Assembly: GCA_044234345.1 (NCBI GenBank)
Contig: JBIIIW010000001.1
Span: 1,766-65,765, forward strand
DNA length: 64,000 bases
Reading direction: 5' to 3'
Source of the DNA: Minisyncoccia bacterium
GTDB taxonomy: Bacteria > Patescibacteriota > Minisyncoccia > Phycocordibacterales > PALSA-1337
Part shown: positions 4,977 through 48,478 of the stretch, in pieces
Numbering within the stretch: position 1 is the stretch's first letter
How the letters are laid out: each line of letters starts with the position of its first letter
Program-made: the position numbers and the translations under genes
Notes under the pieces: model-generated
Database searches by the model: none
Seen by the model: only the letters and a program-made list of their open reading frames with translations
What the model was told of the DNA's origin: nothing

Positions 4977-6077
4977 ATGATTATCGCGAACATTCCGTTA
5001 GGTATACAACTCGGTGTGATGCTGTTATGCAGTGTAGCTGGTCTCTGGATATTCCACTATTGTGTGATTAGAGTGATCTTACAAGGAGGTCGTCCGCAAA
5101 ATGGTCCGCCAGAGAGTAGGGAAGAGAAATCAACAGAGGTTGCTTCAAAAACTTCGAAGATCCTGCTCGATGAGTTGAAGACAAGCCTGGTTAAGACTCT
5201 AAGAAAGCGTGACCGGGAAAGTCAATGTGATTCAGCGTTCTGGGCATCTTTTTCGCTTGTTGGAGAAAGCGAAGAGTTTGGTGTCGTGGTCTTAAGGGTA
5301 GACACTAACAACTATGGTTATCAAATAAGAACAGGTAACTTTAAAGATTCGAACGCTTGGGAAAATCTGGTAATAGCGACCCGAAAAGGATACTGCTTCC
5401 TTGGAAGAGTGAACCTCTACAAGGGTGCTGTGTATAACGGGCCGTTTCAGATTACAAAATCCGAAAGTGGATCAATTGTAGTTAGCTGGGGACAAGCTTC
5501 GTTCACTATTAAGGACGAGGAGATGAGAGGTGGTTATGATTTTCCATTCGAATTACCTCCGCGTTCTGAGATGGTAAGAACTGTCTACAACCTTAATGGT
5601 GCTATTGTCGTAATCGATGATGATCCAGGCCAAGGTCGGTATGTTCAGTTTTCGGTAGATCAAATGGGTAAGCGACTGAAAGCAGATCGCACAGTCTGGG
5701 ATTTACCGGGTTGCGTTAGGTGTGTCAAAGATGCAATTCAATATTTACCAGATTGTAGTGGTCGTCGTGAACAGGTTAGACTAGTCCTCGTTGACGGCAA
5801 CTTTAGCGGGGATGGAAGAGGTTTCAATACCGGTAGACTCATTCCTGTATTGCGCGAACGATACCCCAATGCACTCCTTTTCGCGAATAGTGGAATGGCT
5901 GAGAATCATACTAACCATACTCCCGAACTATTGGCAGCTGGTTGTGACTGTGCGCTCTCGATCGAAGATTATGGTTATAAGTCAAATCTGACTAAAATCC
6001 TAGCAAGAGTAGCCGAGCTCAAGCCGGAGATTCTTGTGAGTGAGGAACTTGACTTGAATGAAGTTCTAAAAATCTGA
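4977..6077 (+). CDS. hypothetical membrane-anchored protein (GC-rich cassette gene 2)
   Basis: 366 aa with an N-terminal TM helix (IPLGIQLGVMLLCSVAGLWIF). C-terminal region VLVDGNFSGDGRGFNTGRLIP...LLAAGCDCALSIEDYG is of unknown fold. Good RBS and terminator. Confidence 0.6.
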   Translation: MIIANIPLGIQLGVMLLCSVAGLWIFHYCVIRVILQGGRPQNGPPESREEKSTEVASKTSKILLDELKTSLVKTLRKRDRESQCDSAFWASFSLVGESEEFGVVVLRVDTNNYGYQIRTGNFKDSNAWENLVIATRKGYCFLGRVNLYKGAVYNGPFQITKSESGSIVVSWGQASFTIKDEEMRGGYDFPFELPPRSEMVRTVYNLNGAIVVIDDDPGQGRYVQFSVDQMGKRLKADRTVWDLPGCVRCVKDAIQYLPDCSGRREQVRLVLVDGNFSGDGRGFNTGRLIPVLRERYPNALLFANSGMAENHTNHTPELLAAGCDCALSIEDYGYKSNLTKILARVAELKPEILVSEELDLNEVLKI

Positions 6078-6085
6078 CATTACAA

Positions 6086-6111
6086 GCGGGCACTCTACCA
6101 AGGGTGCCCGC
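6086..6111 (+). terminator. intrinsic terminator
   Basis: gcgggcac-tctaccaagg-gtgcccgc hairpin followed by attttct. Confidence 0.7.
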
Positions 6112-6177
6112 ATTTTCTATACAAATATTGGTAAGTAAAACTAAATTAATAAATCAGCGTCATACCAGTACCTGTGG

Positions 6178-6229
6178 TGTTATTCAGAACGAAAGGGAAG
6201 AGGAATACCCTAAATCATCTATTAGCTAT
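6178..6229 (+). repeat. right copy of the direct repeat (core 6188..6215)
   Basis: See 4480..4535. Confidence 0.8.
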
Positions 6230-6610
6230 TCCCCGATATGTTTTAAAAAGAGTTGGCATGGATAACAGAGGAGAATGGAATATTAAATTAGTAATATAAA
6301 GATTATTATATTTCTCAATTAATTCCTTAATGTTTATTTAAAATATGAGCGATCAAGGTATCGATGGGCAAGTAGTAGTTAGCTTCCTTTCTCCTATAGA
6401 GACAACGTCGCACAATATACCTTTTACGATATAGATACACTATAAACCACTCCCCCGATTAAGCTAAAAAATCTGTAAGCGACACTCGCCTATTATTCTT
6501 TGTCATTAATTTAGTCTCTGTAATTAATTTTAAATAAATTTATTTCTAATAATTTATGTATACAAATATTTAAATTATTTTATAAAATTTGCCTCACTAT
6601 TGTTATCTTA

Positions 6611-7039
6611 TTGATATTTCCGTATTTAATGCTAGAATCAGCTCGGTTACAGCTAAAACACTTACATAGGTATTATCGTATGCCACAGATCATTGTTAGA
6701 TATAATCCGAAGCTGATTAGCCCGGATATGCTCAAGCATTTGGACTCAGTCTTTTCACCGGTAGTCGCCAATCTGGCAAGTGTAGCCAGTGGACCGATAT
6801 TTACCGCTAAGGACGTCGACTTTTTCACATACGCAAACGAAACCTCATCCAGATGCCCGGATCTTGCTATCGAGATACGGACAATTGGACATGCGGATAG
6901 AATCGAGTCTTTGAATCAGTCCGCGCAAATACTTGTCGATATTGTCGTAAAGGCATTGATTGTTAAGTGTGGTCTGAATATTCCGCCCCATGGATTCCTT
7001 TGGATCCAGGCAATTAGCCCAGCAGGTGTGCATGTCTAA
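6611..7039 (+). CDS. hypothetical protein, possibly tautomerase-superfamily-like if translation starts at MPQ (6677)
   Basis: Internal Met-Pro start MPQIIVRYNPKL... of about 120 aa is reminiscent of Pro1 tautomerase/CHMI-like proteins. GC-rich and followed by a strong terminator. No SD seen at either candidate start. Confidence 0.35.
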   Translation: MIFPYLMLESARLQLKHLHRYYRMPQIIVRYNPKLISPDMLKHLDSVFSPVVANLASVASGPIFTAKDVDFFTYANETSSRCPDLAIEIRTIGHADRIESLNQSAQILVDIVVKALIVKCGLNIPPHGFLWIQAISPAGVHV

Positions 7040-7063
7040 TGCCATCAGTCACATTCACAAATT

Positions 7064-7085
7064 CCCACGCGAGGCGTGGGTTTTT
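7064..7085 (+). terminator. intrinsic terminator
   Basis: cccacgcgaggcgtggg hairpin followed by ttttt. Confidence 0.65.
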
Positions 7086-7095
7086 CTTTGTATGG

Positions 7096-7371
7096 TTAAG
7101 AAAAAGCATCATTTTGTATGATGCTCGTTTCCCCCCTAATCTTTCCTGTAATTAATTTAACCCCAGGTTTCCAAATATATTCTATAAATACTTCTTTCCA
7201 AATAAATTTTGCTGGTTGTTCTAGATACTTGTTCCACACAAATGATACAACTTCCTTAATATACTCCAAATTAGACTGAGTTACAGGTGAATTTACAGAC
7301 TTACGTATATCTACACCTAGATTACCTAGTATGATGAGAGCTATGATACCTATAACAATCCATTTAACCAT
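7096..7371 (-). CDS. hypothetical small membrane protein
   Basis: 91 aa with an N-terminal TM helix (IVIGIIALIILGNLGV). Confidence 0.4.
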   Translation of the reverse strand: MVKWIVIGIIALIILGNLGVDIRKSVNSPVTQSNLEYIKEVVSFVWNKYLEQPAKFIWKEVFIEYIWKPGVKLITGKIRGETSIIQNDAFS

Positions 7372-35608: not shown

Positions 35609-37399
35609 CTATGTCAACACTGCCTTTATCCTCCTCACTCCTTGAGAACTAGCTTCCTCCTTCTGTATCTTAAATACTCCAAGCTCTGAAGTATTCTTAA
35701 CATGTGGACCTCCACAGAATTCTTTAGAGTATGCAGTTTCTAGGGAATTACCGATAAAGTATATTGATACTTCATCTCCATACTTCTCTCCGAAGAAATG
35801 TCTTGCTCCAGTCTTAAGAGCTTCTTCTTTCGGAAGAACTACATTCTGCATTGGCAATGCTTGCTTGATCTTCTCATTAACTATATCCTCTACCTTCTTC
35901 TTTTCTTCATCCGTCATCTTCTTGTTGTACGAGAAATCAAATCTTAATCTCTCAGCCGTTATATTAGATCCCTTCTGCCCTACTCCTTCCCCAAGTACAT
36001 CATGTAGTGCCTGGTGTAGTAGGTGGGTCGCTGTATGGTACTTAATCACCATAGGATTAGTATCATCTGCTAGTCCTCCTTTAAACTTCTGTTCTGCTCC
36101 GGATCTAGATAGTTCTTGATGCTTCTTGAACTCCTCATTGTATTTTTCAATATCAACTGTAATACCCTTCTCTTTCGATAGTTCAAGTGTTAACTCTATA
36201 GGAAAACCATAACTTGAGAACAGGGTAAATGCATCTGTACCTTTATCGAATTCCTTAAGCCCCTTCTCAAGTGTCTTTCTAAACTTCTCCTCCTCCTGAT
36301 TAATCTCATTTCTAATATATTCAAGTTTGTCTTGTATGATTGGATATGAGTCCTTGTATGTATTTGCAAAGATATTAACTAAATCCTTTAGTGTATTCTC
36401 TTGTACCCCTAACCTATTAGCATTAACTATAGCTCGTCTCAATAGTCTTCGTAGTATGTATCCTCTATCAGTATTAGATGGAGTAACTCCGTCTGTGATC
36501 AGGAATACAGATGCACGAATATGATCAGCAACAATTCTTGCGGACTTTAGATCAAAGTTCTTAGATACAGAAGATATCTTCTCCATTACTGGTTTGAATA
36601 GGTCGGTATCATATATATTGTCTACTCCTTGTAGAGTCATAGTAAGTCTCTCCAATCCAGCACCTGTATCTACTGAAGGTTTAGGTAAGGTACCGACTAT
36701 AGCTCCATCCTTCTTCTCATATTGCATGAATACATCATTCCATACCTCAACAACAGTTCTCTCATCATCTGCCTTAACATATTCTTCATGAGTTAGTCCT
36801 CTGCCTCCAAATGTATTTGATATATCGTAGAACATCTCCGTATCTGGTCCACAAGGTCCATTGTCTCCAGCCTCCCACCAGTTATTCTTCGCAGGGAGGT
36901 AGTATAGTCTGTTACCTTCAATACCATTTCTCTTGAATATATCCTTCCAGATGTTCGCAGCTTCTTCATCACGAGGAGCTATGCTATCTCCTTCAAATAC
37001 AGTTACATATAGTCTGTTAGGATCAAGTCCTAATCCTTCTTCTTTGTTTGTTAAGAATTCAAAACTCCATTCTATAGCGTCTTTTTTGAAATAGTCACCA
37101 AGAGACCAGTTACCAAGCATTTCAAAGAATGTAGCATGTGTCTTGTCTCCAATATCATCTATATCAACAGTACGAAGACATTTCTGTGTATCAACTAATC
37201 TAGTTCCGTTTGGATGAGTCTTACCAAGTAGGTATGGCACTAGAGGTTGCATACCTGCAGTATTAAAAAGTGTTGAATTAGTTATTCCCTTCTCATCTGT
37301 TGTTACAAGAGATGCTGAAGGTATGACAACATGCCCTCTCTTCTCGAAGAATTTAAGGAATCTAGATCTTATATCGCTACTTGTTAACTTTGGGTTCAT
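35609..37399 (-). CDS. alaS: alanyl-tRNA synthetase, truncated form without the C-Ala domain
   Basis: The N-terminal catalytic domain (FLKFFEKRGHVVIPSASLV...FFEMLGNWSLGDYFK) and the editing domain HxxxH/CxxxH (HTATHLLHQALHDVLG, CGGPHV) are present. Only 596 aa. Confidence 0.9.
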   Translation of the reverse strand: MNPKLTSSDIRSRFLKFFEKRGHVVIPSASLVTTDEKGITNSTLFNTAGMQPLVPYLLGKTHPNGTRLVDTQKCLRTVDIDDIGDKTHATFFEMLGNWSLGDYFKKDAIEWSFEFLTNKEEGLGLDPNRLYVTVFEGDSIAPRDEEAANIWKDIFKRNGIEGNRLYYLPAKNNWWEAGDNGPCGPDTEMFYDISNTFGGRGLTHEEYVKADDERTVVEVWNDVFMQYEKKDGAIVGTLPKPSVDTGAGLERLTMTLQGVDNIYDTDLFKPVMEKISSVSKNFDLKSARIVADHIRASVFLITDGVTPSNTDRGYILRRLLRRAIVNANRLGVQENTLKDLVNIFANTYKDSYPIIQDKLEYIRNEINQEEEKFRKTLEKGLKEFDKGTDAFTLFSSYGFPIELTLELSKEKGITVDIEKYNEEFKKHQELSRSGAEQKFKGGLADDTNPMVIKYHTATHLLHQALHDVLGEGVGQKGSNITAERLRFDFSYNKKMTDEEKKKVEDIVNEKIKQALPMQNVVLPKEEALKTGARHFFGEKYGDEVSIYFIGNSLETAYSKEFCGGPHVKNTSELGVFKIQKEEASSQGVRRIKAVLT

Positions 37400-41140: not shown

Positions 41141-42091
41141 CTATTTCAAATATCTATTTATGTTATTCAAATGAGTGTCATATGTAATTGCATATCTCAT
41201 TAGTCCATCTTTACCAGTTAGGTAGTAATAGTAGTCAGTCTTAATGTAGTTAATTGTATCCTCTATCGCAGCTATACCAGGATTTGATATTGGTCCCTTT
41301 GGTAATCCTTTATATAGGTAAGTATTATAAGGAGACTTAATAGCTAGATCTTGCTTTGTGAAGTTGCCTGGCTTACCAGTTAGGTAATAGAAAGGAGCAT
41401 CAACTTGAAGTAGCATTCCACGATCAAGTCTCTTCCATAATATTCCAGCAATGATCTTCCGATCCTCACTGTTATTAGCTTCCTTCTCCACTATGGCTGC
41501 CATATTAACAATATCCTTTAGACTCCTATTAGACTTACTCAAGTTAATCTTACTTATCTTCTCTTCAAAGTTCTCTCTCATAACCTTAATTATCTCCTCA
41601 GGTTTTGTATTAGCTAAAAAGATATATGTATCTGGATATAGATATCCTTCATATTGTATTGCTAATGATACAAACCTTGCTGCATTAAAGTCATTTAATT
41701 TCTTTAGGAGAATATATGCAATATCGTAGGTATTTGTACCTTCAGGTATTGTGATAGTTACACTTGGTTGCCTCTGTTCCCCATTAATCATTCTTCTTGC
41801 AATACCTATTGTATTTGTAGGCTCGCTGAATCTATAGTCTCCAACTTTAACTCCTTTGTTACCTGACAGTACTATAGCTATAAACTTAAATACTGATTTA
41901 CTTGATATCATATTCTTCTCGTACAGTGATTCTGCTACCTTGATTATCGAATCTCCGCTGTCTATATGGAAATCAAACTGTTGTTTAGGAAAATCCTTTG
42001 GTGGTGTAGATGAGTACCCTATAACAAGTAGGAGAATAGCGAAAATGATAAATGCTAATTTTAGTATTCTTGTATATTTGAAGTATTTCAT
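41141..42091 (-). CDS. mltG: endolytic murein transglycosylase MltG (YceG-like)
   Basis: N-terminal TM helix and the YceG hallmark GYLYPDTYIF. Confidence 0.85.
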   Translation of the reverse strand: MKYFKYTRILKLAFIIFAILLLVIGYSSTPPKDFPKQQFDFHIDSGDSIIKVAESLYEKNMISSKSVFKFIAIVLSGNKGVKVGDYRFSEPTNTIGIARRMINGEQRQPSVTITIPEGTNTYDIAYILLKKLNDFNAARFVSLAIQYEGYLYPDTYIFLANTKPEEIIKVMRENFEEKISKINLSKSNRSLKDIVNMAAIVEKEANNSEDRKIIAGILWKRLDRGMLLQVDAPFYYLTGKPGNFTKQDLAIKSPYNTYLYKGLPKGPISNPGIAAIEDTINYIKTDYYYYLTGKDGLMRYAITYDTHLNNINRYLK

Positions 42092-43359
42092 TATATAGGT
42101 AGATTTGCAGGAGCCTGTGACTTCTTAGAAGGTATACGATTAAGGTTAGGTGTTGATGCAACTGCACCTGGGAAGTGATATAGAGTTGCTAATTCCTCTG
42201 TGCTTAATACAAGCGGTGTACCTGTAAAAGGCTCATAGAAGAATGATCTTCTCTTGTATGCCTCAAGTACAAGTCTACACTGCTTGTTCTCTCTGTACTT
42301 CTTGTAGTCCTCCCAAGGTAGTCCTGAGAACTTAGCTGAGTACTTGTCTCCATTCTGTTTGATTCCGTTAAAGTTCTCACTTGAGAAGTGCTTGAATGCA
42401 GAAAGTATACCTCCCACACCATTTGGTTTGTCGAATACATCCTTCTTACCAATGTACACAGCCCTGATACCAACATCAAAAGCTAGTTTACCCATATTCC
42501 TCTCAACTGCCTTTATGAGTTCCTTCTCTCCATCAGTTAGAGTTGGAGGTATGACTCTTCCAGTCTCCTTGTCCTTCTTACCAACAATTCTAGTCTTAGC
42601 ATCACGCACCATAAGTTTGTTAACAAACTCTTGAGCTTGGTCCTTGTACGCATCAGTTTTCTTCCATAGATGACCAGGTTTGGCTTGTTCCGCAGTGTGA
42701 GCTCTAATCATGAACTGAAACCATACTTGTTGATTAGGACCGACACTTCCAAGAAACTCAATCATGGGAGTCATAGGATCAACTTTGAATTCCTCCTTAG
42801 GATCCTTATCAAGTCCATAATCAACGTATGTCTTTATCGGCAATACATCATTCTTCTGTGTAAACTTAAAGTCTGCACCCCATAGCTTACTTTCTTTAGG
42901 ATCGAAGTGTATACCATGAGTGTAGTCTGGTGCCTCATGTACTTCAATACCTGGGAACTGAGAATATAGCGCTGCCATAACTCCATTCTTTCTTCTGTCT
43001 TCTGTGCGAATGAAGAACTTAACTACACCCTCAACTGATACTAGTTCGAGAGAGTATGTTGGTCTTTTTTCCCCTTTCCAGAATTGGGCAAAGTTACTAC
43101 CATCTGAAGTATTGTGTAATGCGTTCAATACTAATTCCATAGAGAGTGGAGATTTCAGCATCTCTTTAGGAAGTTTAATTTCCAAAAGAGTGTACTTCAT
43201 ATTGGCTATGAAGTCTGATCTAACATAGTTGACCCATAGAGGCCAAAAAAGAACGTAAAGGATTATAGCTAAGAAAATTGGAGATATAGCTATTAGTATT
43301 TGGATGGTATTTGGTAACATTTCACCAAATAGCATTGATTGAAGTTCAACGGGAATCAT
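42091..43359 (-). CDS. hypothetical membrane protein (422 aa)
   Basis: N-terminal TM helices (IQILIAISPIFLAIILYVLFWPLWV) and a large soluble domain of unknown function. Confidence 0.55.
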   Translation of the reverse strand: MIPVELQSMLFGEMLPNTIQILIAISPIFLAIILYVLFWPLWVNYVRSDFIANMKYTLLEIKLPKEMLKSPLSMELVLNALHNTSDGSNFAQFWKGEKRPTYSLELVSVEGVVKFFIRTEDRRKNGVMAALYSQFPGIEVHEAPDYTHGIHFDPKESKLWGADFKFTQKNDVLPIKTYVDYGLDKDPKEEFKVDPMTPMIEFLGSVGPNQQVWFQFMIRAHTAEQAKPGHLWKKTDAYKDQAQEFVNKLMVRDAKTRIVGKKDKETGRVIPPTLTDGEKELIKAVERNMGKLAFDVGIRAVYIGKKDVFDKPNGVGGILSAFKHFSSENFNGIKQNGDKYSAKFSGLPWEDYKKYRENKQCRLVLEAYKRRSFFYEPFTGTPLVLSTEELATLYHFPGAVASTPNLNRIPSKKSQAPANLPI

Positions 43360-43889: not shown

Positions 43890-44936
43890 CTACGCCACTA
43901 CCTTAGAATCAGCTGGAGAATACTTACCATCCTTGTTCTTCTTGAAATGCTTCTGGTTCTGGATATTAACCATAATAGTGTTTTCCTTTACATATCTCTC
44001 CTTCATTACCTTTTCGATAATCTCATCTTTAGATAGAGGACCATGCTTCTCTAGTATGCTCTTTATAACATCCTTAACTACTCCTGACATATATCCCCAT
44101 TCACGTAGAGCGTATAGACCACGTCCTACAAGTACAAATCTCTTGTCTTTAATTAGTTCGTTATGAGTTGTTGCGATATGAGCCTTCTTCTTGAATATTG
44201 TAGTAATCTGCTTAGCAACCTCTTTGAAGTGTATAGGTGAACCATGCTTACGGATAACTAGGAATGCATAGTCTCTCATACCCTTTGTCTTGATATTTGA
44301 AGAATGAGATACTCCCCATTCACCCATAGCATTTTTACCAATCATCTTAGAAAGTGATAGCCAACGCTTAACAATCTCCTGATTCTTGTATTTCTCAGAA
44401 ACTTGCTCTAGATGTGACAGGAACTTGTTAACAATCTCTGATTCAACTAGTAGATCGTCATCTGAAAGTTCTCCATATAGCTTTTTTAGAGAGTCTTCAA
44501 CTTGTTTTGAAAGCTCTTCGTTTACATGCCATCTGTGCTTGAATTCATCATCCTCCTTTCTCTTCTTGAATACATCACCAATTACTAGTATGAAGTGTAT
44601 ATGATTCTGTAGTTCTAGATCCTTTGATGCATGTCCAAGGAAATCATCTTCAACAACAATTCCACCAAGAGAGTGTATTAGAGTCTCAAGTTCAGCAAAT
44701 GCAGCCTTCTCAGCCTTATATGCATCTGACTTACGGATATTAGCTAGAGCATAGTTCTCTATCTGACGTACTCTTTCACGAGTAATTCCATATAGTTTAC
44801 CTATAGCATCTAGAGTCATTTTCTCTGTACTCTTGCCTAGACCGTATCTTTTGACAAGGACTTCACGAGCACGATCAGGTAGCACTGAAAGCAGCTTCTT
44901 TGATGTTTGTTTTGGTTTGAATTGGATGTTTGCCAT
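43890..44936 (-). CDS. sigma-70 region-4 HTH domain protein with C-terminal HARE-HTH-like domain
   Basis: The N-terminus (LPDRAREVLVKRYGL...TLDAIGKLYGITRERVRQIENYALANIR) matches sigma70_r4. The C-terminus (HFKEVAKQI...DKRFVLVGRGLYALREWGY) matches the HARE-HTH signature found in the RNAP delta subunit. Confidence 0.6.
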   Translation of the reverse strand: MANIQFKPKQTSKKLLSVLPDRAREVLVKRYGLGKSTEKMTLDAIGKLYGITRERVRQIENYALANIRKSDAYKAEKAAFAELETLIHSLGGIVVEDDFLGHASKDLELQNHIHFILVIGDVFKKRKEDDEFKHRWHVNEELSKQVEDSLKKLYGELSDDDLLVESEIVNKFLSHLEQVSEKYKNQEIVKRWLSLSKMIGKNAMGEWGVSHSSNIKTKGMRDYAFLVIRKHGSPIHFKEVAKQITTIFKKKAHIATTHNELIKDKRFVLVGRGLYALREWGYMSGVVKDVIKSILEKHGPLSKDEIIEKVMKERYVKENTIMVNIQNQKHFKKNKDGKYSPADSKVVA

Positions 44937-45001: not shown

Positions 45002-48000
45002 TTAGACTACAATATTGATGATTTTGTTCTTAATAATTATTACCTTTTTAATCTCCTTTCCTTCTGTCCATTTCTTCACTTCATCCATATTCATAGCTAT
45101 GTTTTTGACATTCTCATCGCTATCATCCATCACTGTTTTTAGTATTCCTCTAGTCTTCCCATTTATCTGTACTGATATGGTCGCAGTACTTGATACAAGC
45201 ATACCTGGGTCATATTTAGGCCAATAACTGGCATGTACTGAACCCTTGTTCTTTAGCTTCGCCCATAACTCTTCAGTTACATGAGGAGCGAATGGTGCTA
45301 CCAGAGATATAACTACTTCGTAATCACTTTTTGTTATAGAGCTTTCTTTCTCAAATTGATTCAGAAGAATCATGATTGAACTTATCGCTGTATTGAACCT
45401 CATTTCCTCAATATCCTCACCTACCTTCTTTATCGTCTTATGCACCATCACTTGTGTCTCCTCACTAACCTTCGCATCTATACTTACCTTCTCTTGTAGC
45501 TTCCATATTCTTTCTATAAATCTTCTTGATCCAGCTATTGTATTTGTGTCCCATGCTATCGCTTGATCGAATGGACCCATAAACATTTCATGAACTCTTA
45601 GTGTATCTGCTCCAACTGTATTTACTATGCTATCTGGATTAATTACATTTCCCTTTGACTTCGACATCTTCTCTCCTCCTTCTGCTAATATTAGTCCATG
45701 TGATGTTCTCTTCTTGTATGGTTCTTTGGTCGGTACTAGTCCTAGATCGTACAGGAATTTGTGCCAGAAACGAGAGTATAGCAAGTGTAGAGTGGTATGC
45801 TCCATCCCACCGTTGTACCAGTCTACTGGAGTCCAGTATTCTAGATTCTCTTTTGATGCAAACATCTTTTTGTTACCTGGATCTGCATATCGAAGGTAGT
45901 ACCAACTAGATCCTGCCCAGTTTGGCATTGTGTCTGTCTCTCTTTTGGCTTTACAATCAAAATTAAAGTATCTGTGGATATCATCAAAACTTCTTAAGAT
46001 TTGTCTTTCTGGTAGTACTTCATTTAACTTATCAAATCCATTAAAGCCCCAAGAACAACCAATAATTTTTTCTCTATCAAGCAAATTTTCCAACTCAAAC
46101 ACATCTGCCTTAGTGTCAGTGAAGTAATGTATTTGCTTAACACCTACTCCCCAATCTTTGCAGACTCTCTCAATCTTGTCTTCTTTTGATTTCCCATCTT
46201 CGAATGATAGGACGTGTGTAAATTTAATTTTAGATTTTTTAAGTGTGTTCTTCACATACATACCTGATCCAGAAGAAACCACAGCACATTTTATGTTTTT
46301 ATACTTTTTAACTTCATTAATGAAATCCTCGAAAAGGTTGATCTCGTGTCTTATCATTTGTTCGCCAAAACTTCTGGACCATCTTACGTCCCTCTCTATT
46401 TCCTCAGTTGCTTGTACGGAATCTCTAGTGTGATGAGGTTTTTTACCAAAATACTCTTGCAGTTTAGAGATTGTTTCGTTCTTAGATTTATCCTCATCCA
46501 TTGCAAACCTTGCCTCTACTGTTGCATTCCATGTATCTCCTAGAACTCCATCGAAATCAAAGATAAAATATTTAATATCATTCTTCTCGGCTATACATTT
46601 TGGACACTTAGTATTTACCCATTTCTCTATAGAAGCGAGTGGACTCTCTCCAGTCTGACTTGGTTTGTAATTATCTATCTTAGGTAGTAACAGAGGTAAC
46701 TCCTTTTCAGGTAATGGCACTATTCCACACTTCTCACAGTGAACTACAGGTATTGGCTCTCCCCAATATCTTTGTCTTGAGAATATCCAGTCTCTTAGTT
46801 TAAACTTTGTTACCCATTTACCTCCTACGAATTCTGTAATTTCCTCCTTAACCTCTTCTGAGTTCCTGTTATTAAACCTATCAGAATTGATTAGTAGTCC
46901 AGATTCAGTTACTGCATGGTTATCATTCTGTAGTCTGTATAGCCATATATCTAATTCTCCACATTGCATTGTATCCTTACGTATATCCTTAAGTGGAAGC
47001 CATATTGGTTCATGCTTCTCATTCTCTTCAGTAGTTACACTATCTTTCTCTTCATTCTCTAATTCAAAGCATGCCACTTGGAAGTATGCAACTCTATTTT
47101 CATCTTTATGTGCAGCAAAGAATTCACTCTTCACTGTGCCTCCCAGAGTGTTAATATATTTTAAGTTCTTGTATCCTGTTTCCTCTAGTATCTCTCGTCT
47201 TGCTGCTGTCTCTACACTCTCATCTCCCTCTATTCCTCCAACGATGAATGTAGTCCAAGGTTGCTTCTTCCACTTCAGGCATAGTATTTTTCCAGTCTTT
47301 GGATCTCTTACAATTGCTTGTATTGCTCTTCTCTCTACTATCTTCTTCCCATCTCTGTGTGGATTAGTTAGATCGATTCTTACTGGCATAACGACATCTC
47401 GTATCTCAAGGCTATACTTTCTTGCAAAGTCGTAATCTCTTGTATCGTGTGCAGGAACTGCCATAACTGCACCAGTTCCATAGTCATTGAGTACATAGTC
47501 TGCTACCCAAACAGATATCTCTTCGTTATTAGCTGGATTAATTGCCTTTATACCCTTAATCTCTACTCCTGTCTTAACTGTCTTTGCATCTGTTCTCTCA
47601 ATATCTGTCTTCTCCTGTACTTCCTTAATGTATTTTGCAATCTCTATCGTATTCTCTGCATTTTGCATGAATTTAGATACCAGTGGGTGTTCTGGAGCAA
47701 GTACTACATATGTAACACCAAACATTGTATCTGGTCTTGTTGTATATACTTTTATCTTCTCCTCACTCGCCTTTATACTAAATTCAATTTCTGCACCTTC
47801 ACTTTTCCCTATCCAATTCCTCTGTTGTATCTTTATCTTCTCCAGGAAGTCTGTCTCATCTAGATCTTTGTCTAGTCTTTCTGCATATTTAGTTATTGCC
47901 AGCATCCATTGCTCCTTCTCCTTCTGCTCTACTTTTGTACCACATCTCTCACAACATCCGTCTATCACTTCTTCATTAGCTAATCCAATTAGATCCTTAG

Positions 48001-48478
48001 GACACCAGTTAATGGTTAGCTTCTTCTTGTAAGCTAATCCTTTCTTTAGAAACTGTAGGAATATCCATTGTGTCCATTTGTAGTACTTTGGATCTGTTGT
48101 ATCTATCTCTCTAGACCAGTCGAAAGAGAAACCTAATGCTTTTAATTGTCTTCTGAAGTTATCTGAGTTTGTCTTACTCACTATACTTGGCTGTATACCA
48201 GTCTTAATTGCATAGTTTTCTGTAGGTAGACCAAATGCATCCCATCCTATTGGGTAAAGTACATTGTATCCTTCTCTACGTCTCTTACGTGCAATGATAT
48301 CCATTGCTGTGTTACTTCGTATATGTCCTACGTGTAGTCCATCACCTGATGGGAATGGAAACTCTATTAATGCAAAGAATTTCTTCTTGTCCTTATCCTC
48401 CTTAACCTTGTTCGGCTTCTTCGACTCCCATACCTTCTGCCACTTCTTTTCTATTTTTATATGATCGTAGGGCTCCAT
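45002..48478 (-). CDS. leuS: leucyl-tRNA synthetase with inserted NUDIX and HAD-like domains and no canonical CP1 editing domain
   Basis: HVGH, [69 protein letters not shown]. Extra segments: NUDIX box [23 protein letters not shown] (about 46981..47401) and a HAD segment [10 protein letters not shown]...VVSSGSG...FTDTKAD (about 45946..46573). Only about 75 aa lie between TRPDT and GTGAVM, where CP1 normally sits. Confidence 0.9.
   Translation of the reverse strand: [1158 protein letters not shown]

Follow-up and report, generated by a model that had tools for sequence, protein, structure and literature searches.

The closest described counterparts of the gene considered here are the canonical bacterial leucyl-tRNA synthetases (LeuRS), represented by the structures from Escherichia coli (4AQ7/5ON2) and Thermus thermophilus (1H3N/2BTE), and the LeuRS of Mycoplasma mobile (3ZIU, 637 amino acids (aa)), which stems from a reduced genome and naturally lacks the connective polypeptide 1 (CP1) editing domain. 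We analysed a leuS gene on the minus strand of a 64,000-nucleotide stretch (hereafter the window) of contig JBIIIW010000001.1 from a Minisyncoccia bacterium of the Patescibacteriota (assembly GCA_044234345.1). Its product follows the domain order of the canonical enzymes and, unlike the Mycoplasma protein, keeps a complete CP1; it differs from the canonical enzymes by a 157-aa NUDIX domain nested in CP1, a 215-aa HAD domain following a Zn knuckle, and the lack of a leucine-specific domain. As judged from its sequence, the gene is one that encodes a LeuRS with the synthetic site, both Zn modules, the CP1 editing site, and the anticodon-binding and C-terminal domains. On balance, we lean towards the view that the two cassettes are accessory nucleotide hydrolases carried by an intact LeuRS, where they would clear nucleotide by-products in addition to the proofreading performed by CP1.

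Architecture of the synthetase and its two cassettes

The gene forms a single open frame without interruption, comprising 1158 aa and a stop codon. The whole protein scores 971.9 bits against the bacterial LeuRS model TIGR00396 (leuS_bact), for which the curated equivalog cut-off is 548.4, and Pfam recognizes tRNA-synt_1, tRNA-synt_1_2, Anticodon_1 (PF08264), NUDIX and HAD_2 in the open reading frame. We built a family alignment from the query and its best 120 matches among 5.8 billion protein clusters (121 LeuRS in all), in which the class I signatures, represented in the query by HVGH at aa 49-52 and KMSKS at aa 937-941, are kept in 120-121 members. A residue alignment with the T. thermophilus enzyme (Tt) pairs query residues 1-364 with Tt 1-363, 522-628 with Tt 376-487, 844-934 with Tt 491-581, and 937-1158 with Tt 637-876. 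Two clean insertions stand between these blocks, residues 365-521 in place of Tt 364-375 and residues 629-843 in place of Tt 488-490, and the leucine-specific domain (Tt 582-636) is the sole part of LeuRS without a counterpart in this alignment. The gene is divided as follows (positions in the window, nt for nucleotides).

45002-48478, minus strand: leuS open reading frame, 1158 aa plus stop, a bacterial-type LeuRS with two nested hydrolase cassettes.
47822-48478, minus strand: aa 1-219, first half of the Rossmann catalytic core with the HIGH signature (HVGH, aa 49-52, nt 48323-48334) and the ZN-1 module C159...C179 (alignment, conservation).
47387-47821, minus strand: aa 220-364, first three quarters or so of the CP1 editing domain, with TTRPDT at nt 47726-47743 and the GTG/Asp motif including Asp345 at nt 47444-47479 (PF13603, CP1 structures).
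46916-47386, minus strand: aa 365-521, NUDIX cassette inside CP1 (site C), Nudix box at aa 414-436, nt 47171-47239 (PF00293, conservation, model).
46595-46915, minus strand: aa 522-628, end of CP1 and return to the catalytic core, with the Zn knuckle C581-x2-C584 ... C625-x2-C628 (alignment to Tt 376-487; cysteines conserved).
45950-46594, minus strand: aa 629-843, HAD cassette (subfamily IA, C1 cap) right after C628 (site E), DFDGV at nt 46544-46558 and DTKAD at nt 46103-46117.
45005-45949, minus strand: aa 844-1158, second half of the catalytic core with KMSKS at nt 45656-45670, followed by the anticodon-binding and C-terminal tRNA-binding domains (alignment to Tt 491-581 and 637-876; PF08264).

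An AlphaFold2 (AF2) model of the full-length protein, computed from a 95-sequence alignment, reaches a predicted local distance difference test (pLDDT) of 88.1 and a predicted template modelling (TM) score of 0.74. It superposes on the full-length E. coli and T. thermophilus LeuRS with a Foldseek TM of 0.83, normalised to the target, and the CP1-less M. mobile structure ranks 50th in the same fold search as a much poorer and shorter match. Base composition is even along the gene, with a GC content of 0.384 in the NUDIX segment, 0.340 in the HAD segment, 0.384 in the rest of the gene and 0.38 in the window, and both GC and skews are uniform. The motifs of LeuRS, NUDIX and HAD quoted in a preliminary description of this locus, which was made from the DNA letters and their translations, are all present where it placed them.

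The preliminary description took this protein for a LeuRS that had lost its CP1 editing domain. Several lines of evidence contradict this. PF13603 (tRNA-synt_1_2, the LeuRS editing domain) matches aa 220-369 in two stretches with E=5e-65, crystallized CP1-only constructs (4k47, 2ajg, 3pz5, 3o0a) match aa 226-371 with E=1e-33 to 1e-37, and the fold search described above finds the whole enzyme to be shaped like its canonical counterparts. A normal CP1, which the preliminary description itself had named as the finding that would speak against its claim, is therefore what both profile searches and structure prediction return, and CP1 loss is ruled out by Pfam, by the PDB sequence matches and by the fold search. 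The Thr-rich motif TTRPDT (aa 246-251) and the GTG/Asp motif (aa 334-345), formerly read as the flanks of a missing domain, lie at normal spacing and contain what we take to be the equivalents of the E. coli editing residues T247/T248/T252 and D345. Since these two motifs belong to the editing site and are not landmarks of the synthetic site, the premise of a lost CP1 was a mis-assignment. The corresponding query residues T246, T247, T251 and D345 are invariant in all 121 aligned family members. The pLDDT of the AF2 model falls below 50 only at aa 334-343 (nt 47450-47479), within a strictly conserved loop of the editing site, and this stretch is probably a mobile substrate-binding loop, not a sign of disorder or decay.

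The NUDIX cassette (aa 365-521, 157 aa) stands where the T. thermophilus enzyme has a loop of 12 residues (Tt 364-375), some three quarters into CP1; since CP1 itself interrupts the Rossmann fold, the cassette is an insert within an insert. PF00293 matches aa 383-501 (E=4e-14, 53 bits against a cut-off of 21), and the box at aa 414-436 fits GX5EX7REUXEEXGU at every position, which bears out the complete NUDIX domain with a perfect Nudix box reported earlier. In the AF2 model, the cassette adopts the expected arrangement of a beta-grasp and helices at a pLDDT of about 88-95, with the box helix spanning residues 422-434. G414, E429, E432 and G435 are kept in 110/110 family members, E433 in 108, and E420 and R428 in 104. 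The best PDB matches of a NUDIX profile are AvrM14, the lupin and Aquifex Ap4A hydrolases, Dcp2 and DIPP (E=1e-8 to 1e-5), and no equivalog of NCBIfam is reached. Nudix subfamilies can reportedly be told apart by residues downstream of the box, with a proline some 15-16 residues after it marking ADP-ribose pyrophosphatases (ADPRases) and a tyrosine 16-18 residues after it marking hydrolases of diadenosine polyphosphates (ApnA). Across 123 NUDIX copies the proline is absent, position +15 being A/S/K and position +16 E/F/H, and the NADH pyrophosphatase motif SQPWPFPxS is likewise absent after the box in LeuRS-type NUDIX domains. Position +17 is occupied by F in 56 and Y in 52 copies, and position +18 by F in 61, Y in 31 and H in 23.

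The HAD cassette (aa 629-843, 215 aa) replaces three residues and begins where the second CxxC of the Zn knuckle (C625-C628) ends. The module and motifs seen in the preliminary description hold up; its placement in the leucyl-specific region does not, as the cassette sits in the Zn-knuckle loop. HAD_2 (PF13419) matches aa 639-793 with E=2.6e-11, and all four HAD motifs can be assigned: motif I as D641-x-D643-G-V (DFDGV, aa 641-645), motif II as S735, motif III as K765/K768 and motif IV as D788...D792 (DTKAD, aa 788-792). A helical C1 cap is located between motifs I and II, as is characteristic of subfamily IA. D641, D643, S735, K765, K768, D788 and D792 are kept in all 21 of the 21 family members that carry the domain, and the cassette modelled alone together with free-standing homologues reaches a pLDDT of 93.5 and a predicted TM score of 0.90. 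Neither single-sequence nor profile searches against the PDB gave a significant match, and the fold search returned generic neighbours from subfamily IA only. The models show that both cassettes are predicted to fold independently. Because the catalytic residues of NUDIX and HAD are conserved across the family, both inserts look like working enzymes under purifying selection, and chimerism is excluded.

Insertion, loss and exchange across Patescibacteria

The preliminary description had pointed to related Patescibacteria as the place to look for orthologues, and the architecture does recur there in many independent assemblies. The same NUDIX insert is found in many independently assembled LeuRS labelled Taylorbacteria, Paceibacter, Paceibacteria, Minisyncoccota or 'Patescibacteria group'. 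The family consists of a 766-aa LeuRS core with at least five recurrent insertion sites, given here in core numbering.

Site A, core ~202-212: one or two NUDIX copies.
Site B, core ~236-243: alpha/beta-hydrolase or NUDIX.
Site C, core 363-366: NUDIX in 110 of 121 members.
Site D, core ~406: serine hydrolase.
Site E, core ~453: HAD in 21 of 121 members.

A NUDIX-bearing LeuRS has one to three copies of this domain, and the largest member (P0002, 1722 aa) combines three NUDIX domains with one alpha/beta-hydrolase and one HAD, making five nested domains. Alpha/beta-hydrolase modules (Ser_hydrolase, Hydrolase_4) are nested at one or other of two sites, B and D, in LeuRS of related lineages, among them P0002, P0036 and P0087. 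Gains and losses were followed on a neighbour-joining tree of the LeuRS core. On this tree, the site-C NUDIX appears to be ancestral to the sampled clade and to have undergone several independent clean losses; the insert-loss forms measure 766-771 aa, and one of them (P0102) retains a 33-aa stub. The HAD cassette is distributed patchily on the core tree, with the nearest core relatives of the query being devoid of it.

Divergence of the NUDIX domain is uncorrelated with divergence of the core (Spearman -0.06), and the inserts fall into about 17 types at a 45% identity cut-off, with a mean core identity of 0.697 within and 0.702 between NUDIX types; such correlations may be biased, as the 120 relatives were picked for their resemblance to the query, but the breakpoint profile does not depend on how they were picked. 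In a sliding-window comparison of the query with P0024 and P0030, identity amounts to about 80% in the flanks, drops to 30-45% at aa ~346-525, and rises to 80-97% beyond. Comparison with P0001 and P0004 shows the cassette to be conserved as much as its flanks. Up to three different NUDIX types occur within one LeuRS, and copies in multi-NUDIX proteins are 30-38% identical to one another and 55-78% identical to copies elsewhere. Recent tandem duplication was considered as the source of the extra copies and rejected, since identity is lower within than between proteins. On these sequence comparisons, the NUDIX pattern is that of exchangeable cassettes.

Three further cases deserve mention. A non-NUDIX segment of ~120-150 aa ('KDYSAFCSYLMGAKNIKDK...') takes the place of the NUDIX domain in the site-C columns; it clusters with P0042, and its assignment to P0049 is tentative. 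A 924-aa LeuRS from Kaiserbacteria (L004:6689-9463) carries a different, MutT-like NUDIX domain (box GGKIESEETPLAATKRELEEELEF) at site C, which implies the independent capture of another NUDIX type; the gene immediately upstream of this leuS encodes a free HAD. At a third locus, LeuRS is distributed over two open reading frames of 637 and 517 aa (L012:3680-5593 and 5675-7228) with the break inside the HAD cassette; the gene may truly be split, or the break may stem from a frameshift or from faulty assembly.

Relatives of both cassettes also exist as separate genes. A profile of the embedded HAD retrieves a large family of free-standing Patescibacteria proteins of ~205 aa, with 40-54% identity over ~91% of the length. 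One of them (P0224) is encoded directly upstream of leuS in Kaiserbacteria, in the same syntenic block, and others overlap by 4 bp with the end of a HisRS-like gene, with a NUDIX gene, or with a class-I amidotransferase (GATase) gene. Stand-alone HAD-NUDIX fusions were found as well (P0181, P0214). A scan of GTDB species genomes, analysed by local hidden Markov models (HMMs), places the same HAD family in LeuRS at five core positions (~240-254, 366-374, 402-408, 452-456 and 615-651); where it shares site C with the NUDIX domain, either of the two can come first. In other Patescibacteria, members of this HAD family also occur in a CTP synthase and a PNPase (L028:3134-5500 and L027:5809-7902); in the CTP synthase the module separates the synthetase from the glutamine amidotransferase domain, and in the PNPase it is fused to the C-terminal half (RNase PH, KH, S1). 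These partners other than LeuRS (HisRS-like protein, CTP synthase, PNPase and class-I GATase) all handle nucleotides.

For the LeuRS-type NUDIX, a phmmer search of 1.84 billion representatives yielded 371 clusters at E<=1e-3, and 148 of the best 150 among them were analysed. LeuRS core segments accompany the domain in 104 of these 148, and 33 are short (<=210 aa) proteins with a Met start and no LeuRS segment. Of the free-standing NUDIX genes examined, the two closest lie 2 bp upstream of leuS (P0254) and 3 bp upstream of an insert-less leuS (P0274); the leuS without a NUDIX insert is that of L038 and L039. By sequence comparison, the pairing of an insert-less leuS with an adjoining free NUDIX gene is a Rosetta-stone relationship. 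A metagenome scan for further free-standing NUDIX contexts brought up six loci for P0254 and none for P0274; three of the six proved to be embedded copies, a fourth was a NUDIX domain truncated at the end of its contig, and the remaining two matched weakly. The HAD-paired NUDIX domains of L006, P0181 and P0214 belong to a different subfamily from those embedded in LeuRS, and NUDIX-HAD pairing is for this reason generic and not type-specific. Taken together, these contexts show that both cassettes derive from small free-standing Patescibacteria genes, some of them directly upstream of leuS, and that NUDIX and HAD are recurrently linked to leuS by nesting, fusion and translationally coupled adjacency.

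Proposed function and competing explanations

Following the nucleotide hydrolase reading that we favour, LeuRS would hold the NUDIX and HAD domains in proximity and at a 1:1:1 stoichiometry. The NUDIX domain could cleave NDP-X or NTP species into NMP and (P)Pi, the leading candidates being ApnA formed from Leu-AMP and ATP, or aberrant NTP. The HAD domain might then take the phosphate product, converting PPi to 2 Pi or NMP to nucleoside. Clearance of these by-products would pull or tidy the adenylation chemistry, and the cassettes would supplement CP1 proofreading without replacing it. Since the position of the cassettes in the LeuRS scaffold is flexible, tethering and co-expression would outweigh precise geometry.

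A number of observations weigh against a LeuRS-dedicated role of this kind. The query has phenylalanine (F453, F454) and not tyrosine at the ApnA marker positions, and LeuRS is a poor producer of Ap4A in E. coli. The best curated match of the HAD domain, the pyrophosphatase PpaX (NF009804), reaches 24 bits against a cut-off of 218, and neither the equivalog score nor the diagnostic cap residues of the HAD-type inorganic pyrophosphatases (PpaX NF009804 / BT2127) were found. Relatives with 78-80% core identity and identical synteny possess an insert-free LeuRS of 766 aa, with no NUDIX or HAD gene within 8 kb of leuS, and the inserts are dispensable for LeuRS itself. One of these insert-free proteins, P0117 (core 78% identical), shares the synteny of the window, with YchF ... 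leuS, sigma70_r4/HARE-HTH, DUF8128 and YceG. The linkage of HAD is not LeuRS-specific, because it also nests in CTP synthase and PNPase. Three more distant free NUDIX members (35-44% identity) are not near leuS, and one of them follows a gene for Fapy-DNA glycosylase (MutM/Fpg) after a gap of 4 bp (L042:3016-4513), an adjacency that hints at MutT-like sanitation of oxidised nucleotides, or nucleotide sanitation in general, for at least part of the NUDIX family.

It is possible, though in our estimation rather doubtful, that the modules are house-cleaning enzymes without any LeuRS-specific role and that LeuRS merely serves as an essential, constitutive and permissive carrier. Genes adjoining leuS would then have been captured, and their persistence would be near-neutral or would save regulatory overhead in a tiny genome. 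Such a scenario accommodates the repeated and clean loss of inserts, the nesting of HAD in unrelated hosts, NUDIX types that are uncorrelated with host phylogeny and swapped with sharp boundaries, and the distant free homologues in contexts other than leuS, including the one beside MutM; the widely variable insertion position likewise implies that no fixed geometry is required. It is difficult, however, to explain at least five independent nestings of one HAD family in one host without selection for physical linkage, and the carrier scenario is also at odds with the one to three NUDIX copies per LeuRS, with the translationally coupled upstream genes where the module is un-nested, and with the LeuRS-embedded state of about 70% of the sampled NUDIX representatives.

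A more ambitious extension of the by-product clearance that we prefer is that the Paceibacteria-type LeuRS constitutes a dedicated docking platform for exchangeable hydrolase cassettes that are coupled to aminoacylation chemistry. Five or more loops would take up one to three NUDIX domains of different types, HAD and alpha/beta-hydrolases, and recombination would exchange these modules. The coupling could consist, for example, in the in-cis removal of PPi, ApnA or aberrant adenylates. We consider this unlikely as it stands and offer it tentatively; if true, it would add a hitherto unrecognised level at which metabolites are controlled in association with a synthetase, and it would be novel both as a form of protein modularity and as a class of accessory activities of aminoacyl-tRNA synthetases (aaRS).

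Far less probable, in our view, is a role in conflict or immunity, in which the hydrolase payload would neutralise nucleotide-like inhibitors of LeuRS (mimics of aminoacyl-adenylates, for instance the toxic moiety of agrocin-84, or microcin-C-like compounds) or would cleave nucleotide signals, with cassette diversity resulting from an arms race. The ~17 divergent NUDIX types, exchanged independently of the core and present in up to three versions per protein, would fit such a race, as would the IleRS with a fused GNAT domain curated by NCBI (NF040702). GNATs of the MccE type inactivate aminoacyl-nucleotide antibiotics. Against this stand the nature of NUDIX chemistry, which cleaves pyrophosphate linkages that are absent from known aminoacyl-AMP mimics, the occurrence of the HAD family as a widespread, single-copy, housekeeping-like gene, and a PADLOC search without a meaningful match, with no toxin or immunity genes nearby.

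We find it scarcely credible that CP1 was lost and that the two hydrolase domains proofread in its stead or edit in trans, as the preliminary description proposed. Its milder idea of product clearing, for instance of Ap4A, may hold and is taken up in the reading that we favour. The presence of two extra hydrolase domains is the only observation in its favour. CP1 is present and complete with editing residues that never vary in the family, and because its fold and catalytic residues are there, the inserts cannot compensate for its absence; aminoacyl esters are not substrates of NUDIX or HAD chemistry, and the genuinely CP1-less LeuRS of M. mobile, on which such a proposal would have to draw as a precedent, has a different, shorter architecture.

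Finally, assembly chimeras, inteins or mis-called frames can be dismissed with near certainty, as nothing except the unusual length of the gene speaks for them, whereas the frame is single and open, its composition and skew are uniform, both inserts are confidently folded enzymes in the models, the same junctions (VVM|PVR...NDNH|AVT for NUDIX and CPKC|IAE...FDCK|AKR for HAD) recur in dozens of independent assemblies from NCBI, JGI, ENA and Logan, a recurrence that argues against chimerism, and there is no Hint/intein Pfam match in the open reading frame, nor do the inserts begin with Cys/Ser or finish with His-Asn, in agreement with the earlier remark that no splicing motifs are visible.

Neighbouring genes and comparison with known systems

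Two genes that always follow leuS in this clade are present in the window, both on the minus strand: one for a 348-aa Sigma70_r4 and HARE-HTH protein (43890-44936) and one for a 422-aa protein without a Pfam match (42091-43359), the syntenic orthologues of which carry DUF8128 (PF26449). Farther along the same strand (35609-37399), the window encodes an alanyl-tRNA synthetase of 596 aa (tRNA-synt_2c and tRNA_SAD) that has neither a C-terminal C-Ala region nor nested domains. Domain insertion is, on that account, not general to the aaRS genes of the window.

Public annotations of the family read 'leucyl-tRNA synthetase', 'class I tRNA ligase family protein', 'leucyl-tRNA synthetase/phosphoserine phosphatase' or 'hypothetical protein'. 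The full texts that we searched, with much subscription literature outside their scope, contain no description of a LeuRS with a NUDIX or HAD domain, and the preliminary description likewise knew of no LeuRS with such an architecture. The enzyme itself is unquestionably a LeuRS; its nested, exchangeable hydrolase payload appears to be undescribed. Few enzymes are as conserved as the aminoacyl-tRNA synthetases, in which new catalytic appendages are rare and tend to be informative. This family constitutes a natural system for studying domain insertion into essential enzymes, and it supplies candidates for the clearance of nucleotide by-products (PPi, ApnA, NMP) in organisms with minimal metabolism. 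Our analysis also corrects a tempting misreading, as proofreading has not been lost.

Among described enzymes, the subfamily IA HADs of COG0546 (phosphoglycolate phosphatase-like proteins, PpaX of Bacillus subtilis and BT2127 of Bacteroides thetaiotaomicron) are the relatives of the second cassette, which is only 13-21% identical to them, scores far below the equivalog cut-offs and differs in being nested. The NUDIX cassette resembles the Ap4A-hydrolase and decapping sector of the Nudix superfamily in its best profile matches, its perfect box and an aromatic residue at +17/+18. It nevertheless belongs to a distinct small family that matches no equivalog and, within the sample of the best 150 clusters, is mostly embedded in LeuRS. 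With respect to the fusion itself, NF040702 ('isoleucine-tRNA ligase, N-acetyltransferase domain-containing') is likewise a class Ia synthetase with an extra small-molecule enzyme domain, differing in its IleRS host and its GNAT domain, and the multi-site, multi-cassette behaviour of the LeuRS family is not known there. Fusions of the NadM-Nudix type (NMN adenylyltransferase / ADP-ribose pyrophosphatase) from phages and bacteria join a HIGH-class nucleotidyltransferase to a Nudix domain that acts on a product-related nucleotide (PMC7824862). They share with the LeuRS described here the covalent union of an adenylate-forming HUP/HIGH-class enzyme and a Nudix domain. The Nudix subfamilies differ, the LeuRS-borne domain having no ADPRase proline marker, and NadM-Nudix is an end-to-end fusion to a small nucleotidyltransferase, whereas in LeuRS the Nudix domain is nested inside a domain that is itself inserted in an aminoacyl-tRNA synthetase.

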